Shown here piece by piece: positions 3,453-40,563 of a stretch of DNA of 64,000 bases. The DNA comes from Alphaproteobacteria bacterium (GTDB taxonomy: Bacteria; Pseudomonadota; Alphaproteobacteria; Rs-D84). The DNA lies in the NCBI GenBank assembly GCA_009783145.1, contig WRHR01000001.1, positions 492-64,491 on the forward strand, given 5' to 3'. A model generated the notes under the pieces. It did not search any database. It had not been told where the DNA came from and saw nothing but the letters and a program-made list of their open reading frames with translations. Position 1 is the stretch's first letter. The number at the start of each line of letters is the position of its first letter. The translations under genes and the position numbers were made by a program.

Positions 3453-4463
3453 TTAGAAGTAATACCGCAGCCCCAAGCTTATCGCGTTGTTTATCAACCA
3501 GCTTGTTTTATTGGTGAACGTATGTATGTCGGCTGGTGCCGGCGGCGTCAGTTGGAAATCAAGCGACTGCTTGGTTCCGCTGAAAGTATAGAGCTTGTAA
3601 CCCAGGTCCAAAGCGAATCGTTCGTCGATTCTCCATTGATAGCCCGCCATCAACGCAAGCATTGGGGAAGCCACGCGCTCTTTCGAGTTGCCATGCGTAT
3701 TATTCAGGAAAAATATTTCGGTGCCGCCGGCATGAATTTCCGTCGTCGGGAAAGCTATGCCAAGGCCCGGTCCGAAATACAGGCTGCTGCGCGTCGCGCC
3801 GGAAAAATTATACAGCGCGTTGACCGCAAGATACGGCGCGGAAATCGCAAACGACACGTCGTCCGCGTTGGTCGAATATTCGCCGGTATAGCCGCCTTCC
3901 AATTCGAATCGCCATTCGGCGTCATAGTTCATACCCGCGCTTGCGGCAAATCCCAGCATCGGTTTGAAATTAAACTCGTCCGTGCAGTATTCCCCGCCCA
4001 CGCAGAAAACGCCGTCGGTATAATGCTTGGAAGTAAAGCTTGCCAGAGTATGCACATACTTCAGCGCGGCGTACCACTCGCGGCTCACCGGCTCTTCATA
4101 GCGATACATTACGGACGGGCGCACGTCATTTTGCGCGACTGCCACCGGAACGATTTGTTCCTGGTAAACTTCGCGCTGCACGTATGCGGGCTGTGCGACC
4201 ATTGTCGGCTGCGAGGACATCGTAATGGGCTGGTTAGCCGTCGTGGGCTGGCTGACCGTCGCCGGCTGAGTAATCACGACATTGGTGGCTCGCGGTTTGG
4301 GCGGACCATAGCTGAAGTTATTTATGACCATCGTATCGGTGCTTGACCGGACGGGACGATCGACCTGATCGTTGCCGTACACATCGCCGATGTTAGCGCT
4401 GAAAGCGGCGCCAGAAAGGGCAAATATTCCCAATGACAGCGCAGTAAAGAACTTGATTTTCAT
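3453..4463 (-). CDS. Outer-membrane beta-barrel protein of the OmpA-like/porin-family type
   Basis: Signal peptide MKIKFFTALSLGIFALSGAAFS, alternating amphipathic strands, and a C-terminal ...LGLRYYF ending in Phe. Confidence 0.6.
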   Translation of the reverse strand: MKIKFFTALSLGIFALSGAAFSANIGDVYGNDQVDRPVRSSTDTMVINNFSYGPPKPRATNVVITQPATVSQPTTANQPITMSSQPTMVAQPAYVQREVYQEQIVPVAVAQNDVRPSVMYRYEEPVSREWYAALKYVHTLASFTSKHYTDGVFCVGGEYCTDEFNFKPMLGFAASAGMNYDAEWRFELEGGYTGEYSTNADDVSFAISAPYLAVNALYNFSGATRSSLYFGPGLGIAFPTTEIHAGGTEIFFLNNTHGNSKERVASPMLALMAGYQWRIDERFALDLGYKLYTFSGTKQSLDFQLTPPAPADIHTFTNKTSWLINNAISLGLRYYF

Positions 4464-6079: not shown

Positions 6080-6152
6080 TGTCATTCCCGCGTAGGCGGG
6101 AACAGGGTCTATGAACCGCAAGCGCAAGCGAGCCAAAGGTCTTAAAGACCCA
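6080..6152. repeat. Family-B hairpin element (TGTCATTCCCGCGTAGGCGGGAAC ... GCAAGCGCAAGCGAGCC), homologous to the element at 36493-36560
   Basis: Palindrome ttcccgc-gtag-gcgggaa. The same about 70-bp sequence recurs at 36493-36560. Confidence 0.7.
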
Positions 6153-6205: not shown

Positions 6206-7456
6206 TTAAACCTTCTTCAAAACTATACTCGCATTCGTGCCGCCGAAGCCGAATGAGTTCGAAAGTGTGACTTCAACTTTGCGTTTTTTCGCCACATTCG
6301 GAACTAAATCGAAATTGCCAACCGCATCTTCCGGATCTTCCAGATTAATTGTCGGCGGAACAATCTGGTCGCGGATTGCCAGAGTGCTGAATATAGCCTC
6401 CACCGCGCCCGCCGCGCCCAGCAAGTGTCCCGTCATCGACTTCGTGCTGGACATTGAAACCGGCGCATCACCAAATAATGTTTTTACCGCTTCCAATTCG
6501 CCCGGATCCCCGACCGGTGTTGATGTTCCGTGCGCGTTGATATAATCCACCGCAGATGGCGCCAGCCCCGCGTCTTTCAGCGCCGCGCGCATTGCGCGCA
6601 AGCCGCCCTCGCCCCCTTCGGCCGGGGCCGTTATATGGCTGGCATCCGCGCTCATTCCGTAACCCGCGACCTCGGCATAAATTTTTGCGCCGCGCGCTTT
6701 TGCATGCTCGTATTCTTCCAACACCAAAATACCCGCGCCTTCGCCCATTACGAATCCATCGCGGCCTTTATCCCAGGGACGCGACGCGCGCGTCGGTTCG
6801 TCATTGCGCGTGGAAAGCGCGCGCATAGCGCAAAATCCCGCCATACCCAATCGTCCGATACCTGCTTCGGCCCCACCGCAAATCATAATATCCGCGTCGC
6901 CGTATTTTATAAGACGCGCAGCTTCGCCGATAGAATGCGTGCCGGTCGCGCAAGCCGTAACAATCGACAGGTTAGGCCCTTTAAGCCCGTACTTTATGGA
7001 AATATGCCCGGCCGCAAGATTTATAATCGACTTTGGCACAAAGAACGGGGAAACGCGACGCGGACCATGTTCTTTTAATTCCAGACTGGTTTCATAAATC
7101 GTAGTCATGCCGCCGATTCCGGAGCCTACATGCACGCCTATGCGTTCAAGGTCGATCGTTTCCAGATTTAAATTTGCATCGCGCACCGCTTCGTCCGCGG
7201 CGACAAGCGCATATACGATAAATTTATCCATTCGGCCCTGTTCTTTTGGAGAAACGATTGCGTCGGGATTATATTCGCCTGGCCCATCGCCGATTGTTAG
7301 CAAGCCCGCGATTTGCACGGGTAAATCCGCGAATTCTTCACCGTCCAGGTTCCGTATGCCGGACCGGCCGGCGACTATATTTTCCCAGGCAAATGAAATG
7401 CCCGTGCCGACTGGGGAGACTATCCCCATGCCGGTAATGACAACTCTGCGCGTCAT
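6206..7456 (-). CDS. fabF: 3-oxoacyl-ACP synthase II
   Basis: MTRRVVITGMGIVSPVGTG..., the KAS II active-site context, and full-length 416-aa conservation. Confidence 0.95.
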   Translation of the reverse strand: MTRRVVITGMGIVSPVGTGISFAWENIVAGRSGIRNLDGEEFADLPVQIAGLLTIGDGPGEYNPDAIVSPKEQGRMDKFIVYALVAADEAVRDANLNLETIDLERIGVHVGSGIGGMTTIYETSLELKEHGPRRVSPFFVPKSIINLAAGHISIKYGLKGPNLSIVTACATGTHSIGEAARLIKYGDADIMICGGAEAGIGRLGMAGFCAMRALSTRNDEPTRASRPWDKGRDGFVMGEGAGILVLEEYEHAKARGAKIYAEVAGYGMSADASHITAPAEGGEGGLRAMRAALKDAGLAPSAVDYINAHGTSTPVGDPGELEAVKTLFGDAPVSMSSTKSMTGHLLGAAGAVEAIFSTLAIRDQIVPPTINLEDPEDAVGNFDLVPNVAKKRKVEVTLSNSFGFGGTNASIVLKKV

Positions 7457-7558: not shown

Positions 7559-7650
7559 CGTCACCCCGGCGAAGGCCAGGGTCCATTGCGTCGCAGGCAA
7601 TCAATAATGCTGCGCAGCAGTAGGTCCCGGCCTTCGCCGGGATGACGACT
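7559..7650. repeat. Family-B palindromic element with terminal inverted arms (GTCACCCCGGCGAAGGCCAGGGTCC ... GGTCCCGGCCTTCGCCGGGATGACG)
   Basis: Inverted-repeat arms seen directly. Related hairpins occur at 6082, 32018, 36496, 36967, 38416, 59035 and 62330. Confidence 0.7.
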
Positions 7651-30345: not shown

Positions 30346-32463
30346 TTACTTTATCATCTCAGCAACTAATTCCGACAGCGGGCGGTTTATGAATTCCGGA
30401 TCGCCTTTGATTTCCGGCGCGCCTTTTTTAATCGCGGTATCGCATGGATGATCGTCTTCCAGCCAGTTGCTCAGCAGGTCCCCTGCCAGAAATCCTATGC
30501 CCGCGCCTGCGACCAAGGACAGCCCTCCGGTAAAAGGCGCAAGCAATATCATTCCGATGCCGGTCGTGGCGGCGGTGCGCTCTATAAGGCTGCGGCCGTT
30601 GAACTTGATATCGGGCTCGGCCATGTTTCCGGTGAACTCCATAGAATTCACTATATTGCCGGTAAAGCTGATTTTCAACCCCCGCACCGGCGTCGATACC
30701 ATCGACGCGTCCAAAGTTTCTTTTCCCAAATCCGCCCTGCCCGCCGCGCGCATATTCACGGCAGAGGTTTGCAAGGCGATTCCGCGCTCGGTCTCGACAA
30801 CTCCGCGACGGATTTTCAAGTTTACGACGGCGCATGAAACATCGACTTTGTCATACTTGTTCTTGGCGGTCACCATATCTTGCACGCTATGGCGCAGAGA
30901 TGTCAGAAAGTCCTGGCCGTACAAGTATTCCGCCGCGTCCGGCAGTGCGGTTCCGGCCCCAACGCTGCGCACTTGGAGGGGGCCGGCGACGCTTGCCATC
31001 AATTCGGACAAGTCCTTTCCGCGTCCTTGCAGATAAAACTCGAAGTCCGCCGGAAGGCCTGTTATGATATTTTTTTCGCCCACGCTTTCCAGTATCTTTC
31101 CCGCCTGAATGCCTTGCCCCATCCCCGCTCCGCGCGCGACAACCGCGCCTTCGTCGTCATAGGCGAGCAAAGCGGCGCGAACTTTTCCGCCCGCGAATCC
31201 GGCGTCCATACGAACGGAAAGCTCGCCGTCCTTAACATTCGCGCGCGCGCTTATATTCTCAACCGACAAGTTGCGATACATGACCAAGCTTGCGAGATCG
31301 ACCGCAATATCCGCGTTCGCAAGGTTCAGGTATTCGGAATAAAGCGGCGTATCCTTGAACACGTTCAGCGGCCGGTTCGGGCGCTTCCAAGGCGTCTTCG
31401 CGGTGCCGTACAGCTCTGTGAAAACTTCGCCCAATATGAATTTTTTAGATCTCAGCTTCGCGGATATCATGGGCTTCTTGCCGCCCCAACTGATATTGCC
31501 CGAAACCGACAAGTCGCTTTTTCCGAACGATATCGAAGACTGATGCAGCGTTAGCTTGCTGTGCCCCATACCGCCGGAAATGTTCAACGTCATCGGAGCA
31601 ATCTTCGGAACATCCGGATCAAAGCGTTTTAAAATCGCCTGGGCGTCCGCAATCTTTCCTTTGACTATAAAATCTATGGGCAGCTTTGACGTCTGCTCCA
31701 GCGCCAAGTTCGCGATAACCGGCGTCAGCTTGTTCGCGATCGCGACGCGCACGGGATAAACCTTGCGCGCCGCGTCCAAAGGCAGCAATGACGCGATGAA
31801 CGAATATTCCTGCCCGTCGTCCAGCGCGACACGCCCGACGTATTCTATATATCCGTCGGTCTTCTTATACCGCAGAAAGATTTCTTCCGCCTCGAACTCC
31901 GTCTTTCCGCCCGCGTCGATGAATACGAACTTCGGGTTTTCCATTTTGACGGAATCGATGCCCCAATCCGAATCAAAGGGAAATTTTGCCGGGCCGTCTT
32001 CTTGATTAGTCGTATTTGTCATTCCCGCGAAGGCGGGAACGCGCGAAGACTCCAAGGAATATTCGCCCTCGGCGTTTTCCTCCAGATATACCAGCGGGTT
32101 TACAAGTGTCAAATCGCTGACGGACGCCGTCGTACCCAAAAGCGAAAGAAGATTTATTCTCGCCTCGACCTGATCTATGCGGACGCCGTCTTCATTGGCG
32201 GCCCAATCCTTTGCCGGAATCGCTACGTCGGACAAGACGACGCGAGGCGTCAGCGAGAACTTCCAATGAATCTCGCCGCGGATTTCGACGGGCAGCCCGG
32301 TGGCGCTTGATAGAGCATGCGCGACCTCGCCGCGAAGGGTTTCAAGATTCACCCGCGACAGAGCGACAAACAGCGAAACGACCAGCCCGACAAGAACTAT
32401 CGCGAAGATGCGCGCAAAGCGAAAGAAGTCGCGCTTAAAAAATCGCATCAGTACAAATTTCAT
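30346..32463 (-). CDS. asmA: AsmA-family outer-membrane assembly protein
   Basis: N-terminal TM anchor, then the AsmA-like N-domain (SRVNLETLRGEVAHALSSATGLPVEIRGEIHWKFSLTPRVVLSDV) and a long beta-rich body. A family-B hairpin sits in frame at 32018-32044 (RVPAFAGMTN). Confidence 0.55.
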   Translation of the reverse strand: MKFVLMRFFKRDFFRFARIFAIVLVGLVVSLFVALSRVNLETLRGEVAHALSSATGLPVEIRGEIHWKFSLTPRVVLSDVAIPAKDWAANEDGVRIDQVEARINLLSLLGTTASVSDLTLVNPLVYLEENAEGEYSLESSRVPAFAGMTNTTNQEDGPAKFPFDSDWGIDSVKMENPKFVFIDAGGKTEFEAEEIFLRYKKTDGYIEYVGRVALDDGQEYSFIASLLPLDAARKVYPVRVAIANKLTPVIANLALEQTSKLPIDFIVKGKIADAQAILKRFDPDVPKIAPMTLNISGGMGHSKLTLHQSSISFGKSDLSVSGNISWGGKKPMISAKLRSKKFILGEVFTELYGTAKTPWKRPNRPLNVFKDTPLYSEYLNLANADIAVDLASLVMYRNLSVENISARANVKDGELSVRMDAGFAGGKVRAALLAYDDEGAVVARGAGMGQGIQAGKILESVGEKNIITGLPADFEFYLQGRGKDLSELMASVAGPLQVRSVGAGTALPDAAEYLYGQDFLTSLRHSVQDMVTAKNKYDKVDVSCAVVNLKIRRGVVETERGIALQTSAVNMRAAGRADLGKETLDASMVSTPVRGLKISFTGNIVNSMEFTGNMAEPDIKFNGRSLIERTAATTGIGMILLAPFTGGLSLVAGAGIGFLAGDLLSNWLEDDHPCDTAIKKGAPEIKGDPEFINRPLSELVAEMIK

Positions 32464-36452: not shown

Positions 36453-36495
36453 GTTGGGGTGTTTTTATTTTTAACAAAAGTTTAAAAAAACTTTT

Positions 36496-36993
36496 GTCAC
36501 TCCTGCGTAGGCAGGAGTGGGCCCAGACAGTGCAAGCGTAAGCGAGCCTATAAACCTTTCACTATTATTTCCCCACAATCCAGCTTTCTAAAAAATTCTT
36601 CAGTCATTCCTTCTTTGGGCAAGATTTCATCCAATTCCGCCGCCAAATCCTTCCATTCCGGATTCATCGTTTCAATTAATCTATACTTCCAAGCCCGTTT
36701 CCATTTTTTAAGCGCTTTTTCTCTATCAATCGCCTTATCAACATATTGAAACCATTCGTAATAACCAAGTTTCTTCGTATTGTGTTCTTGCGAGTTTCCT
36801 TTTATCAATCCCAGTTTATGCTCCATAACACGACGTTCTAAATCGTTGGTCATACCGATGTACGTTGCCTGAGCGCGTTCATTGAACATGATATAAACCC
36901 AAAAATTGTATTCTTTGAATTCTTTCATAAAAAGAGAATAGCGAAGTTCGGAAATATTTTCAAGACCCACTCCTGCCTACGCAGGAGTGACAA
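36496..36993. mobile_element. Candidate mobile cassette: a GIY-YIG gene bounded by perfect 27-bp terminal inverted repeats TGTCACTCCTGCGTAGGCAGGAGTGGG. Each repeat is itself a family-B hairpin.
   Basis: The left TIR lies at 36496-36522. The right TIR at 36967-36993 is its exact reverse complement. The gene's start and stop codons abut the repeats. Confidence 0.45.
36548..36928 (-). CDS. Small GIY-YIG nuclease-family protein (URI-domain type)
   Basis: NFWVYIMFNERAQATYIGMTNDLERRVMEH...NPEWKDL. Paralogue of 17627..17935. Confidence 0.7.
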   Translation of the reverse strand: MKEFKEYNFWVYIMFNERAQATYIGMTNDLERRVMEHKLGLIKGNSQEHNTKKLGYYEWFQYVDKAIDREKALKKWKRAWKYRLIETMNPEWKDLAAELDEILPKEGMTEEFFRKLDCGEIIVKGL

Positions 36994-37024
36994 AAATTTT
37001 TCTTACGAAAAATTTTCTAAAATA

Positions 37025-37062
37025 AAAAATCGCCGCGATTGCGGCGATTTTTCATTCCGGTT
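37025..37062. terminator. Bidirectional terminator with the stem ATCGCCGCGATTGCGGCGAT, identical to 14032-14051. It lies just 3' of the DGR target gene.
   Basis: Seen directly. Confidence 0.7.
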
Positions 37063-37075
37063 ACTGTTTTTTCGT

Positions 37076-37810
37076 TTACCGTTTTCTCGCGTTCAGTTCT
37101 TTTACACGTTGCTCGACGAACCGGCGAACGCCCGCCCAGAGATCCGCGCCCTCGTTCAGGTTGCGCGACGAGTGGTCCAGCGCGATCTGCGCGCAATCCG
37201 AACGGGCCCTGTTCCAAGCGCCCAGCGAAACATCCTCATCTTTATCCTCAAACAATCTTGCTATCTCGCCTGTCTTCGTGTTATACAAATAATACATCGC
37301 TACTGCGCCGTCCGATTCCCCCAGCTTTGTCTTCTTTACTTTCTTTGCGTATGTGCTTTCCTTGATACCAATCCCAGGGCCGGCGGTTATTCCGCACAGT
37401 TTCCAATCTGAATCTTTCAGCTCCGGCTGATTATCCACGAACTTCTTCGCACGCTTCATTTCCGCCTGGTCTTTATATATGGTATGGTTATTGTCGCCAT
37501 ACGCCGTGTTCAGGTAGAAATTATCCGCATTGTTGCTGTATACTCCATCCCCACCGTTAATGATATCGTACGCATAGCCCACAAGTTGGCTGTTCTGGTT
37601 GATGATCGTCGTCATCTTTGCCATTGTTTCTTTCAGATCAAGGGGTTTTACCTGGGATTCCAACCGCTCTAACCTTGCGGCCAATTCTTTGTTTTGAATT
37701 TCCAAATTTTTGACTTTAATGCTCAAGCTTTTATGACCGCGAAAAAAGAACTCGTAAACTTTATTTTCCGCAATCTGCTGCTTCAACGTTTTCGGCTTTT
37801 CATTAGACAT
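37076..37810 (-). CDS. DGR variable (target) protein: coiled-coil N-terminus, with the C-terminal VR encoding an Asn-rich CLec/FGE-sulfatase-like ligand-binding tip
   Basis: The C-terminal 40 codons (LGAWNRARSDCAQIALDHSSRNLNEGADLWAGVRRFVEQ) form a 120-bp VR matching the TR at 38055-38174. All differences sit at TR adenines. Confidence 0.8.
   Translation of the reverse strand: MSNEKPKTLKQQIAENKVYEFFFRGHKSLSIKVKNLEIQNKELAARLERLESQVKPLDLKETMAKMTTIINQNSQLVGYAYDIINGGDGVYSNNADNFYLNTAYGDNNHTIYKDQAEMKRAKKFVDNQPELKDSDWKLCGITAGPGIGIKESTYAKKVKKTKLGESDGAVAMYYLYNTKTGEIARLFEDKDEDVSLGAWNRARSDCAQIALDHSSRNLNEGADLWAGVRRFVEQRVKELNARKR
37113..37232 (-). repeat. DGR variable repeat (VR), 120 bp, at the 3' end of the target gene
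   Basis: Reverse complement is 110/120 identical to the TR. The 10 mismatches all correspond to A in the TR (A to C/G/T). Confidence 0.85.
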
Positions 37811-38054
37811 TTTTATATCCTTTGGTTGTTTGCCCGCGAATTGTACCGCAACTTATTATTTTGTCAAGCAATTTTTGCCGTTTATTTTTGTCATTCCCAA
37901 AAATTCGCGCAAATTCCCCATTTTGACGGCTTTAATAATAAACATCTATAGAATTGTTTGTCAAATCGCAAAATATATCGCTGGCGCGAATCGGACTAAA
38001 TTCCCAGACTGGGCCACAGGCCGTATATCGCAAAAAACCGTTGGTTTGCCGCCG

Positions 38055-38174
38055 TGTTTCGCTGGGCGATTGGAACAGGAACCGTTCGAATTGCGCGCAG
38101 AACGCGCTGAACCACTCGTCGAACAACCTGAACGAGGGCACGAATCTCTGGGCGGGCGTTCGCCGGTTCGTCGA
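38055..38174 (+). repeat. DGR template repeat (TR), 120 bp and AAC-rich, in sense orientation with the RT
   Basis: TGTTTCGCTGGGCGATTGGAACAGGAACCGTTCGAATTGCGCGCAGAACGCGCTGAACCACTCGTCGAACAACCTGAACGAGGGCACGAATCTCTGGGCGGGCGTTCGCCGGTTCGTCGA. It encodes GDWNRNRSNCAQNALNHSSNNLNEGTNLWAGVRRF. Confidence 0.85.
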
Positions 38175-38509
38175 TACTTGTTGTCAAAAGTTTAGCCAAC
38201 CCGGGGGACGCGGGGTTTCCCCGCCATAGCCGACACACAAGGCTGGATATGCGACCTTCTTGGGGCCAGGCCCCGGGAAAACACGATAACCGGGAAAGCC
38301 GCCACCCTTCGCGCTGGCGCGCTACGGGTGGCAGGCCCCCTGTGGTGCAATAACGCAAACGGCCGCGGCTTTGATTCATTTTTACAAAATCGCAAAGTGA
38401 TTTTGTCATTGCGGTTCCGGCCTTCGCCGGAATGACAAACCGGGTCCGCAATGACAATTTTTTGTTTTACAAAAAATTGCAAAAATAAAAAACAAAAAAA
38501 GAACCAACT

Positions 38510-38809
38510 ATGACCGATGAAATCCATTCCTTTTCTGACTTCGCCGACAGCCGCCCTGCCCTGGACGGCAGAAAGCGCCGCATCGACGAAGTCCTGAACA
38601 AGCCCATCACCGTTCGCGGGCACAAAATCATCGCTTCGAAAAAAAACGCGGGCGAAATGTGCCTGCACTTGCAATTCGAAATGGACGGCGAGCTGTGCAT
38701 ACTCTTCACCGGCAGCGCCGTTCTTATCGACCAATGCGAAAAGTACGCCGATAAAATCCCGTTCCGCACCAGCATCGTCCGCATAGATAAATATTTTTCG
38801 TTCTCGTGA
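38510..38809 (+). CDS. DGR-associated accessory ORF (99 aa), translationally coupled to the RT. It is not obviously Avd-like.
   Basis: Its stop overlaps the RT ATG (ATGA). It lies between the TR and the RT, where accessory genes usually sit. The sequence looks beta-rich rather than a helical bundle. Confidence 0.4.
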   Translation: MTDEIHSFSDFADSRPALDGRKRRIDEVLNKPITVRGHKIIASKKNAGEMCLHLQFEMDGELCILFTGSAVLIDQCEKYADKIPFRTSIVRIDKYFSFS

Positions 38810-39822
38810 CTTCGCTTTGGTCTGATTTTATATCCCATGAAAATTTCGCGCTTGCGCTGAAAAATGCAACCCGCGGGCGCAAGACCAAGCCTTCTATCGC
38901 GCATTTCTTGAAAAACGCGGACGAGAATTTGGAAAACCTGCGCCAGCTTGTCATCGCCGGAGGGTTCAAGACCTCGCCCTATCGCACCATGGAAATCACG
39001 GATCCCAAGCGCCGCACAATATACATTCTTCCTTTCTGCCCCGACCGATTGCTTCATCACGCCTTGATGAATATTCTTGCCCCGATATGGGAGGCCGGAT
39101 TCATCCGAGATTCTTATGCCTGCATCACGGGACGCGGCCTGCACTCCGCCAGCCGGCGCACCATGCAATTCGTACGCCGGAATCAATACGTGCTGAAATG
39201 CGACATCAGAAAATTCTATCCCAGCATCGATCATAATATAATGTATGAAATCGTGAAGAAGTCTCTTCCGCCCGGCAACGAGAATATCCTGGCCATCCTG
39301 CATGACATTATATACTCAACTGCAGGCGGCAAGAACCTTCCCATAGGAAACCTCTGCAGCCAATGGATGGGAAACCTGTACCTGCACGAAATGGATATAT
39401 ATATAAAGCATGAATTGCGCGTGCGAGATTATTTGCGATACAGCGACGACTTTTGCCTGTTTTCAAACGACAATGCCCAACTGCGCGGGTGGCGCGACAA
39501 AATCCGAGAATTTCTGGCCGCGCGATTGGGGCTGATATTTTCCAAGGCCGAGATTTTTCCAGTGTCGAACGGCCTGGACTTTGTCGGATACCGGCATTTC
39601 AAGGATTTCGTCCTTTTGCGCAAGCGCACGTTGAAAAAGATAAAGTCGCGCATGCTGGAAATCGGCGAGATGAAAAATATAGCACCCGCAAACGCGGAGC
39701 GCATTCGCGGCCAGGTTGCCGCGGCGCACGGCTGGCTGAAATTCGCGTGCTCTTATAACCTGCGCAAAAAGCTGCGGTTCGAAACACTAAAGAAAAAAGT
39801 CGGGATTATTGTTTCCAGTTGA
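38806..39822 (+). CDS. Diversity-generating retroelement reverse transcriptase
   Basis: RT motifs 1-5 are present: RRTIYILPFCPDRLLHHAL, SYACITGRGLHSA, YVLKCDIRKFYPSIDH, the DGR-specific LPIGNLCSQWMGNLYLHEMD, and YLRYSDDFCLF (YxDD). Confidence 0.9.
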   Translation: MTSLWSDFISHENFALALKNATRGRKTKPSIAHFLKNADENLENLRQLVIAGGFKTSPYRTMEITDPKRRTIYILPFCPDRLLHHALMNILAPIWEAGFIRDSYACITGRGLHSASRRTMQFVRRNQYVLKCDIRKFYPSIDHNIMYEIVKKSLPPGNENILAILHDIIYSTAGGKNLPIGNLCSQWMGNLYLHEMDIYIKHELRVRDYLRYSDDFCLFSNDNAQLRGWRDKIREFLAARLGLIFSKAEIFPVSNGLDFVGYRHFKDFVLLRKRTLKKIKSRMLEIGEMKNIAPANAERIRGQVAAAHGWLKFACSYNLRKKLRFETLKKKVGIIVSS

Positions 39823-39870: not shown

Positions 39871-40563
39871 ATGCAATTAACATACGGTCCGTTCCAGGCG
39901 CTGGAACAGCAGGAATTCAAACAAGGGAACGGGAGCTTTGAAATCGAGGCTTTAAGATTCGCCAGATTGTTGCACAAACTGTCATTCGAAAGAAAAATCA
40001 ATTTCAACCACATTTTCAAGTTCTTATCCGCCAGGCCCGATAACGAATATTGGTTCGCCGACAACAACGGCAACCCTTTCGCCGGCATCATCGCCTTGGA
40101 ATACCACACCAAGGCCTTGGCGGACTCGCGATTCGAAATGCACAAGAAGTATGACGATCTGCGATTGGTTTTATCCGGAGAAACAACCATACTTCTTTTG
40201 GATAAAAGCCTGCTTAAATGGGGCAAATTCAATCAGGCGGACGATGTGGCCTTATCCGAAGAAAATTGCTTGGAAGCGCTTTGGCCGCGCAGCTTGCAAT
40301 TCGAGAAAATTCACACGTCGCCCGCGAATCAAAAGATTGACTCTGTCAAGCTTACGGCAAACGGGCTGAACGTTGGCGCGGAAGCGGGCTTGTTATACCA
40401 TATCCCCGCCGGGATGCCTCATGCGCCGGGAATGAATCCGGATAAGCTCGGCGCCTTTGATAAAGTAAGAGAACTGGTCGTAAAATACGACGCGCGGAAA
40501 AGAACTACTCATGACTGGCAAGACAAAGAAATAGGTTATTTTATCTCGGAAGTGAAACGTTAA
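39871..40563 (+). CDS. Hypothetical protein (230 aa) immediately downstream of the DGR RT
   Basis: Clean ORF with a terminator at 40565-40592. No family recognised. Confidence 0.4.
   Translation: MQLTYGPFQALEQQEFKQGNGSFEIEALRFARLLHKLSFERKINFNHIFKFLSARPDNEYWFADNNGNPFAGIIALEYHTKALADSRFEMHKKYDDLRLVLSGETTILLLDKSLLKWGKFNQADDVALSEENCLEALWPRSLQFEKIHTSPANQKIDSVKLTANGLNVGAEAGLLYHIPAGMPHAPGMNPDKLGAFDKVRELVVKYDARKRTTHDWQDKEIGYFISEVKR

Follow-up and report, generated by a model that had tools for sequence, protein, structure and literature searches.

A candidate non-Avd accessory protein and a covarying spacer RNA in a diversity-generating retroelement of an uncultured Alphaproteobacterium

To our knowledge, all mechanistic and structural work on diversity-generating retroelements (DGRs), as well as the engineered mutagenesis systems, rests on the bRT-Avd-RNA complex of BPP-1. 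About one quarter of the catalogued DGRs have no avd gene, and their way of performing reverse transcription is an open question (Wu et al. 2018, PMC5758913). Here, we analysed a 64,000-nucleotide stretch of an alphaproteobacterial genome (contig WRHR01000001.1, positions 492 to 64,491; hereafter the window), which contains a DGR with a 99-amino-acid (99-aa) open reading frame (ORF) between its template repeat (TR) and its reverse transcriptase (RT) gene. The ORF belongs to an unnamed RT-linked family, and its product is probably an RT cofactor that substitutes for Avd within a ribonucleoprotein (RNP) built on the DGR spacer RNA.

The spacer of BPP-1 has been described by cryo-electron microscopy of the bRT-Avd-RNA complex (Handa et al., bioRxiv 10.1101/2023.10.23.563531). 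It contains an Avd-binding stem-loop (Sp3-33), a primer strand (Sp47-56) with the priming adenosine A56, the strand Sp59-70, whose pairing with sequence before the TR forms the cPRT Stop duplex, a short stem-loop (Sp71-78), two adenosines making A-minor contacts (A80 and A81), the single-stranded Thumb Ring (Sp82-94) and the bRT-binding stem-loop (Sp95-139). In B-type DGR architectures, avd is found before the TR, between the TR and the RT gene, or after the RT gene, and the mean isoelectric point (pI) of Avd is about 9.5; the known non-Avd accessory classes are HRDC, MSL (MutS-like), CH1 and PAG1-4 (Wu et al. 2018, PMC5758913).

The core of the DGR in the window is made up of the following features.

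37076..37810, minus strand: target (variable-protein) gene, 244 aa, with the variable repeat in its C-terminal codons at the 3' end
37113-37232, minus strand: variable repeat (VR), an inverted match to the TR over 120 nt with 92% identity
38055-38174, plus strand: TR, the 120-nt repeat shared with the VR, containing 25 adenines
38510..38809, plus strand: accessory ORF, 99 aa, of an unnamed RT-linked family with a predicted OB-like (oligonucleotide/oligosaccharide-binding) fold, whose relatives match phrog_19665
38806..39822, plus strand: DGR reverse transcriptase, 338 aa, with a GTG start that overlaps the stop codon of the accessory ORF (GTGA)

The TR and the VR differed at 10 positions, and all 10 were TR adenines (6 A>G, 3 A>C and 1 A>T). 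The RT matched the RVT_1 profile (2.6e-12) and PHROG 1423 (4e-98), shared 32% identity with BPP-1 bRT across its full length (E 8e-50), and contained IGNLCSQ, which represents the [I/L]GxxxSQ motif of the DGR clade. Because the TR/VR mismatches were confined to adenines and the RT was of the DGR type, the locus was identified as a DGR; it is a complete, chromosomal DGR core. The target gene is divergent to the TR-ORF-RT transcription, and searches of Pfam and further family libraries found no recognised domain or family in its 244-aa product.

The 99-aa ORF is a real gene. A first-pass annotation of this DNA had placed it directly before the RT gene, with its stop codon overlapping the RT start in an ATGA. 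The position and the overlap were both found; the shared sequence is GTGA, with the RT starting from GTG at 38806, and the alignments of RT homologues begin at residue 3 of this reading. A word-indexed search returned close relatives in 37 clusters (42-100% identity, nearly all 95-105 aa long) from metagenome-assembled genomes (MAGs) of Alphaproteobacteria/Rickettsiales. Their alignment contained 14 invariant residues, including F8, F11, G20, K22, S43, K44, Q55, F66, G68, S69, P84 and F85. When 1.84 billion representatives were searched with a profile, 1002 clusters were obtained at E<=1e-3 and 548 at E<=1e-10, most of them with proteins of about 100 aa.

We examined the surroundings of the family members in 55 genome loci, 80 metagenome loci and 13 viral loci, the last obtained from a scan queried with one protein. 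The genome and metagenome loci contained 124 unique genes, of which 107 adjoined a DGR-type RT gene on the same strand, 2 had an RT elsewhere in the locus and 13 were located at contig ends. An RT was present in 109 of the 111 assessable unique loci, indicating that the ORF is conserved beside homologous RTs; the two loci without it were L003 and L042. The RT gene was directly upstream of the ORF in 12 of the 13 IMG/VR loci, and A-specific TR/VR pairs were found in most loci. The linkage spans Alphaproteobacteria, Bacteroidota, Desulfobacterota, Omnitrophica, methanogen MAGs, archaeal viruses and IMG/VR contigs.

Three gene orders were observed. The order TR-spacer-ORF-RT, as in the window, was found in Alphaproteobacteria (termite-gut MAGs and Candidatus Enterousia), and TR-spacer-RT-ORF in Bacteroidota, Omnitrophica, many metagenome and viral contigs, and the archaeal viruses ANMV-1 and vir525. 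The third order, ORF-TR-RT, was present in a Desulfobacterium MAG (L028), a Methanospirillum MAG (L047) and L133. In addition, three RT proteins (P0072, P0126 and P0137) carried the ORF domain as a C-terminal fusion. At its N-terminus, P0072 has a sequence resembling a translated TR (NNGTNAGFAYFNCNNAASNRNANYG). The ANMV-1 homologue (L005, KP703175, 3992-4288; AJP62065.1, a hypothetical protein in GenBank) is encoded directly after the RT. The DGR of ANMV-1 was the first to be described in an archaeal system; a figure legend in the original description (Paul et al. 2015, PMC4372165) names an "Avd" ORF in that cassette, and the text gives no homology evidence for the name.

The first-pass annotation had also judged the ORF not to be Avd-like and had suggested a different accessory factor, and both statements agree with our results, the second as far as the identity of the gene is concerned. 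Neither Pfam bAvd (PF22296) nor PF05635 (23S_rRNA_IVP) matched the 99-aa protein at E<=1, and none of 83 diverse family members matched them; BPP-1 Avd, used as a positive control, scored 7.3e-36 with the bAvd model. Alignment of the ORF family with BPP-1 Avd by hhalign gave a probability of 0.1%. The genes around the family members were also free of avd, as bAvd matched 0 of the 130 small ORFs (95-150 aa) that 64 loci contain up to 2 kb from the RT-ORF pair. The 83 diverse members and the 99-aa ORF matched no Pfam family at all, and the 99-aa protein had no match in NCBIfam, PADLOC or PDB sequences and none above the threshold in PHROGs. Among the 83 members, 35 matched phrog_19665 (best E 7e-11), indicating that phage members of the ORF family have already been clustered there; this PHROG is unannotated and has no stated link to DGRs.

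AlphaFold2 produced a beta-rich model of the 99-aa protein (predicted local distance difference test score 83, predicted template modelling score 0.67), with the topology b1(32-42)-b2(50-58)-b3(61-67)-helix(70-78)-b4(85-92)-b5(95-98). The predicted fold is an OB topology, with five strands and a helix between strands 3 and 4. The model has one main helix (70-78) and is not a four-helix-bundle protomer. The N-terminal tail (FSDFA...G.K) was modelled with lower confidence, yet it is conserved. In BFVD, the best fold matches were viral RT-domain proteins (E 8.5e-7 and 1.9e-6), which are presumably RT fusions of the ORF domain, followed by phage single-stranded DNA (ssDNA)-binding proteins.

The family thus resembles Avd (PF22296) in being small (about 100-130 aa), in being encoded beside the TR and a DGR RT at the same three cassette positions, and in its presumed role as an RT cofactor on the DGR RNA. 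It differs from Avd in showing no sequence or profile similarity, in its OB-like predicted fold, whereas Avd is a four-helix bundle that forms a pentameric barrel, in the near-neutral charge of the member in the window (pI 6.8) as opposed to the strongly basic Avd, and in the RT fusion of some members. Like HRDC, MSL, CH1 and PAG1-4, it is a non-Avd gene conserved in a subset of DGR cassettes, and, as for CH1, its cassettes are DGRs that lack avd. The family had no Pfam match to HRDC or MutS, and CH1 is larger and acidic (160-169 aa, pI 4.7) compared with the ORF family (about 100 aa, pI about 8).

The spacer between the TR and the ORF had been described as structured, and it proved to be so. 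Folded as RNA, the 335-nt spacer reached -129.9 kcal/mol (z = -4.73), and 0 of 100 dinucleotide shuffles folded as well. Its elements are as follows; H1 and H4 are the two short inverted repeats that the first-pass annotation had quoted.

38019..38030, plus strand: upstream duplex strand (GGCCGTATATCG), complementary to 38245-38256 and the analogue of the avd strand in the BPP-1 cPRT Stop duplex
38185..38381, plus strand: conserved spacer RNA domain, defined by a covariance-model (R1) match, RNAalifold, pair counts and per-sequence constrained folds
38186-38199, plus strand: single-stranded AAAGUUUAGCCAA, the first element of the spacer RNA
38200-38204 paired with 38290-38294, plus strand: helix P1
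38205-38209, plus strand: GGGAC
38210-38224, plus strand: hairpin H1
38228-38244, plus strand: hairpin H3
38245-38256, plus strand: spacer strand of the stop duplex, between H3 and H4
38262-38274, plus strand: hairpin H4
38275-38289, plus strand: A-rich strand GGGAAAACACGAUAA
38295-38372, plus strand: H5 domain

In relatives with the same gene order, a conserved core directly follows the TR. Constrained folds of these relatives gave a common layout, which starts with the single-stranded AAAGUUUNGCYRA, the 5' strand of P1, GGGAC, the hairpins H1, H2 and H3 and a 12-nt strand, and continues with the variable hairpin H4, the A-rich strand GAAAAYACRAUAA, the 3' strand of P1 and the long hairpin H5; H2 is limited to Enterousia-type loci. 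The first conserved hairpin, H1, starts 36 nt after the TR, and the first 25 nt or so are the single-stranded motif (AAAGUUUNGC), followed by the P1 strand.

P1 (CCYRN/NYRGG) contained no broken pair when RNAalifold was applied to a plain MAFFT alignment of 24 spacers. Two of its positions covaried (UA:18/CG:6 and CG:11/UG:6/GC:5/UA:2), and further variants were CCCAG/CTGGG in L063 and CCCGC/GCGGG in L003. Because of the variable hairpin lengths, this alignment recovered no helix other than P1, and a subgroup alignment and a covariance model were used instead. RNAalifold on 18 Enterousia-type spacers predicted 36 pairs, 12 of them with compensatory changes, and R1 was built from these 18 distant relatives with no termite-group sequence included. 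In the 64-kb window, R1 matched 38185-38381 alone (24.4 bits, E 5e-5). It also matched 52 other elements, each directly after its own TR. In L009 (4001-6545), the TR (6249-6374) and the spacer RNA (6386-6545) are located downstream of the ORF-RT pair and the RNA still follows the TR, indicating that it is the TR, and not the ORF, that the RNA element accompanies. The 3' module, which consists of the A-rich strand and H5, was recovered by R1 between the TR and the RT gene in the distant viral RT-ORF loci L156 and L158 (E 2-3e-5). Rfam had no match within 38000-38510 at E<=1 and returned sub-threshold noise outside the spacer only.

The R1-based alignment of 46 distinct rows is fitted to the structure, so its pair counts lean to pairing; standard pairs occupied 97.5% of its cells, and the controls were far lower, with 84.8% after shuffling and 27-48% when the partners were slid by 1-3 columns. 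Double-sided changes were found in 29 of the 36 pairs, and the covariation score was 0.356, compared with 0.152 for shuffled and 0.04-0.08 for slid partners. These data indicated that the spacer contains a conserved RNA structure that is maintained by compensatory changes in its relatives.

A long-range duplex encloses the TR. In the window, 38245-38256 (GGAUAUGCGACC) complements 38019-38030 (GGCCGUAUAUCG) with 10 of 12 pairs, in a covarying duplex of 10-12 bp. The duplex is kept with different sequences in L003 (GAAUACAACACC / GGUGUUGUAUUU), L027 (GGCAUCACAUCC / GGGUGUGAUGCC) and L021 (GGCGACAUAACC / GGUUAUGUUGCU). The best anchored complement had a mean of 11.1 of 12 pairs in 27 loci, compared with 8.9 +/- 0.8 in shuffled upstream sequence, where 2.4% of the shuffles reached 11 pairs. 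The upstream partner was mostly located 24-48 nt before the TR, a distance consistent across loci. With the partner selected as the best complement, pair counts lean high; 92.6% of the cells were paired, 9 of the 12 pairs showed double changes, and the covariation score was 0.63 versus 0.26.

When the window RNA was compared with the BPP-1 RNA, both had a structured RNA right after the TR and a duplex between the upstream sequence and the spacer with the topology of the cPRT Stop. From the duplex on, the order of elements was also the same and is conserved in relatives, with H4, GGGAAAA, CACGAUAAC and H5 following the duplex in the window as candidate counterparts. The window single strand GGGAAAACACGAUAAC and GAACACGUUACACGG of BPP-1 both precede a long terminal stem-loop, and by eye GAAAACACGAUAACCGG of the window is similar to GAACACGUUACACGG. 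The 5' halves differ. The window has the AAAGUUUNGC strand, the multi-helix junction closed by P1, GGGAC and H1, whereas BPP-1 has an Avd-binding stem-loop of 11 bp with a UNCG cap. The window has no stem-loop directly next to the TR, so the Avd-binding stem-loop is absent, and the AAAGUUUNGC single strand and GGGAC have no described counterpart in BPP-1. Furthermore, the ORF and an insertion resembling a repetitive extragenic palindromic (REP) sequence lie between the RNA and the RT gene in the window.

On this basis, we propose the following mechanism. A single transcript would begin upstream of the TR, cover the spacer and probably extend over the 99-aa ORF and the RT gene, and the GTGA overlap would couple the translation of the two proteins. 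The TR would be looped out by the duplex of 38019-38030 with 38245-38256, and downstream the spacer would form the P1-closed junction and then a short hairpin, a single strand rich in A and, at its end, a long hairpin. We infer the role of the spacer from this order of elements, which matches four BPP-1 elements (cPRT Stop, A-minor stem-loop, Thumb Ring and bRT-binding stem-loop): it would hold the RT on the RNA, position the TR 3' end for cis-primed complementary DNA (cDNA) synthesis and stop synthesis at the TR 5' end. The natural RT fusions imply that the 99-aa protein would bind the RT. Its second partner would probably be the 5' half of the spacer, which is family-specific (AAAGUUUNGC, P1, GGGAC and H1), giving a productive RNP, and the protein may be needed for cDNA synthesis. 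The conserved 3' half may serve the RT as in BPP-1. Taking the family as a whole, we regard it as an evenly balanced question whether it forms a new and widespread class of DGR accessory protein, in which an OB-like RT partner replaces Avd in many avd-less DGRs of bacteria, phages and archaeal viruses including ANMV-1, together with a spacer-RNA architecture of its own whose 5' half acts as the docking platform.

Several observations weigh against an Avd-substituting cofactor on this RNA. R1 did not detect the BPP-1 spacer, so homology is not claimed, and the Thumb Ring and the bRT-binding stem-loop are likened to elements of the window RNA by their position and by a sequence comparison made by eye. 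A TR:spacer primer duplex or a priming adenosine was not located with RNAduplex or a 7-mer complementarity scan: unconstrained RNAduplex of the TR 3' end against the spacer gave long spurious duplexes with no consistent partner, and the column-wise 7-mer scan gave no signal above background. The pair counts of R1 and of the duplex carry the leanings given above. On the protein side, the Foldseek matches in the PDB were weak and non-significant (best E 0.07), all of them being OB folds (DUF2500, HIN-200, RPA, SSB and RuvBL domain II), and the pI of 6.8 in the window and of 8.0 +/- 1.3 on average in the family is below that of Avd. Finally, L003 and L042 keep the RNA and the ORF, and L003 also the TR, without an RT within 4-5 kb. 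These two loci may be orphan cassettes served in trans or may have lost the RT recently. L003 (identical to L012; 4697-5294) retains a TR/VR pair in which adenines account for 13 of the 14 mismatches, and the corresponding region of L042 is 3569-4285.

The main rival explanation is that the 99-aa protein acts after reverse transcription as an ssDNA binder, which would coat or protect the mutagenised cDNA and pass it on to VR retrohoming. The predicted OB-like topology would suit such a role, as would the SSB, RPA and phage ssDNA-binding proteins among the weak fold matches, and P0038 (233 aa), a tandem duplication of the ORF domain, recalls multi-OB ssDNA binders. However, the PDB fold matches are non-significant, the C-terminal fusions and the strict overlaps of 4 nt with the RT gene suggest that the protein partners the RT stoichiometrically, and the ORF takes the cassette positions of Avd where avd is absent. 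We therefore consider an SSB-like role on the cDNA unlikely as the function of the protein, and it is not mutually exclusive with that of an RT cofactor.

Far less probable is that the ORF is a passenger, or a hitch-hiker from a mobile element or phage, with no DGR role, and that the spacer structure is only of the terminator or REP type. The REP-like palindrome in the spacer tail is dispersed in the genome, palindromic insertions occur in spacer hairpins of the relatives L007, L011 and L063, and two loci have the ORF without an RT, all of which would fit a passenger. This explanation is largely refuted by the linkage to DGR RTs in 109 of the 111 assessable loci across phyla, which persists in three gene orders and as fusions, and by the RNA core with compensatory changes that always follows the TR, even in L009. 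That the ORF is a highly diverged Avd, as its size, its cassette positions and the "Avd" label in the ANMV-1 figure legend could suggest, is barely credible given the absence of bAvd and PF05635 matches in the 99-aa protein and the 83 members, the hhalign result, and a five-stranded beta model with one main helix and no four-helix bundle.

If the 99-aa protein is an RT cofactor that replaces Avd, DGRs would have a second, structurally unrelated solution for assembling the priming RNP, and the ORF family may explain how avd-less DGRs of this kind work. With a second accessory protein, DGR function independent of Avd would become open to direct testing, and this candidate offers a different fold, tight linkage and fusion to DGR RTs across phyla, and a defined RNA scaffold. 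Together, the ORF and the covarying RNA could serve targeted mutagenesis tools as a more compact module of RT, cofactor and RNA. For this DGR RNA family, which is absent from Rfam, the present analysis contributes a covariance model and a structural map. Our literature search, whose coverage was incomplete so that a prior mention is possible and in which PAG1-4 were known by name without sequence comparison, found no description of the ORF family.

The remaining part of the spacer is outside the conserved RNA.

38382..38509, plus strand: AT-rich, non-conserved intergenic tail with 35% GC, containing the REP-like palindrome at 38403-38457

The 335 bp after the TR had been described as GC-rich. 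This applies to 38175-38380 (61% GC) but not to about 38380-38509 (35% GC), and overall 38175-38509 has a GC content of 51.3%, compared with 51.1% for the window. The tail is missing from the relatives, whose spacers are 175-224 nt long. It contains an inverted repeat (38403-38420 / 38440-38457), and the palindrome core (TTCCGGCCTTCGCCGGAATGAC) is dispersed, with 4 copies in the window versus 0 expected. The copies are located at 6081-6102, 7625-7646, 32018-32039 and 38415-38436, with the consensus TTCCSGCCTTCGCSGGAATGAC. The REP-like palindrome is unrelated to the DGR. An identical palindrome core sits in the loop of hairpin H1 in L007, and the other palindromic insertions are in hairpin H4 of L011 and L063, indicating that the spacer tolerates insertions at its hairpin loops.

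Several features were noted around the DGR core. Between the divergent target gene and TR, the 244-bp intergenic region (37811-38054) contains 4 sigma-70-like sites, 2 on each strand, versus 1.2 expected, as would suit one promoter for the target gene and a separate, divergent one for the DGR RNA. Downstream of the RT gene, the ORF 39871..40563 (weak DUF386/YhcH match) was considered as a part of the DGR and excluded, as it is not conserved beside related DGRs. On the other side, a hairpin with a perfect stem and A/T runs on both flanks (AAAAATCGCCGC...GCGGCGATTTTT) is located at 37021-37056, about 20 nt past the stop codon of the target gene and 57 nt beyond the VR, and is probably a bidirectional terminator. 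Next to it, a 140-aa GIY-YIG ORF (36548..36970, minus strand; Pfam GIY-YIG 2e-16) is flanked by 36-nt inverted repeats that are 97% complementary (36486-36521 / 36966-37001). The segment 36486-37001 looks like a small mobile cassette, or one similar to a miniature inverted-repeat transposable element, between an EF-P-like gene and the DGR target gene.

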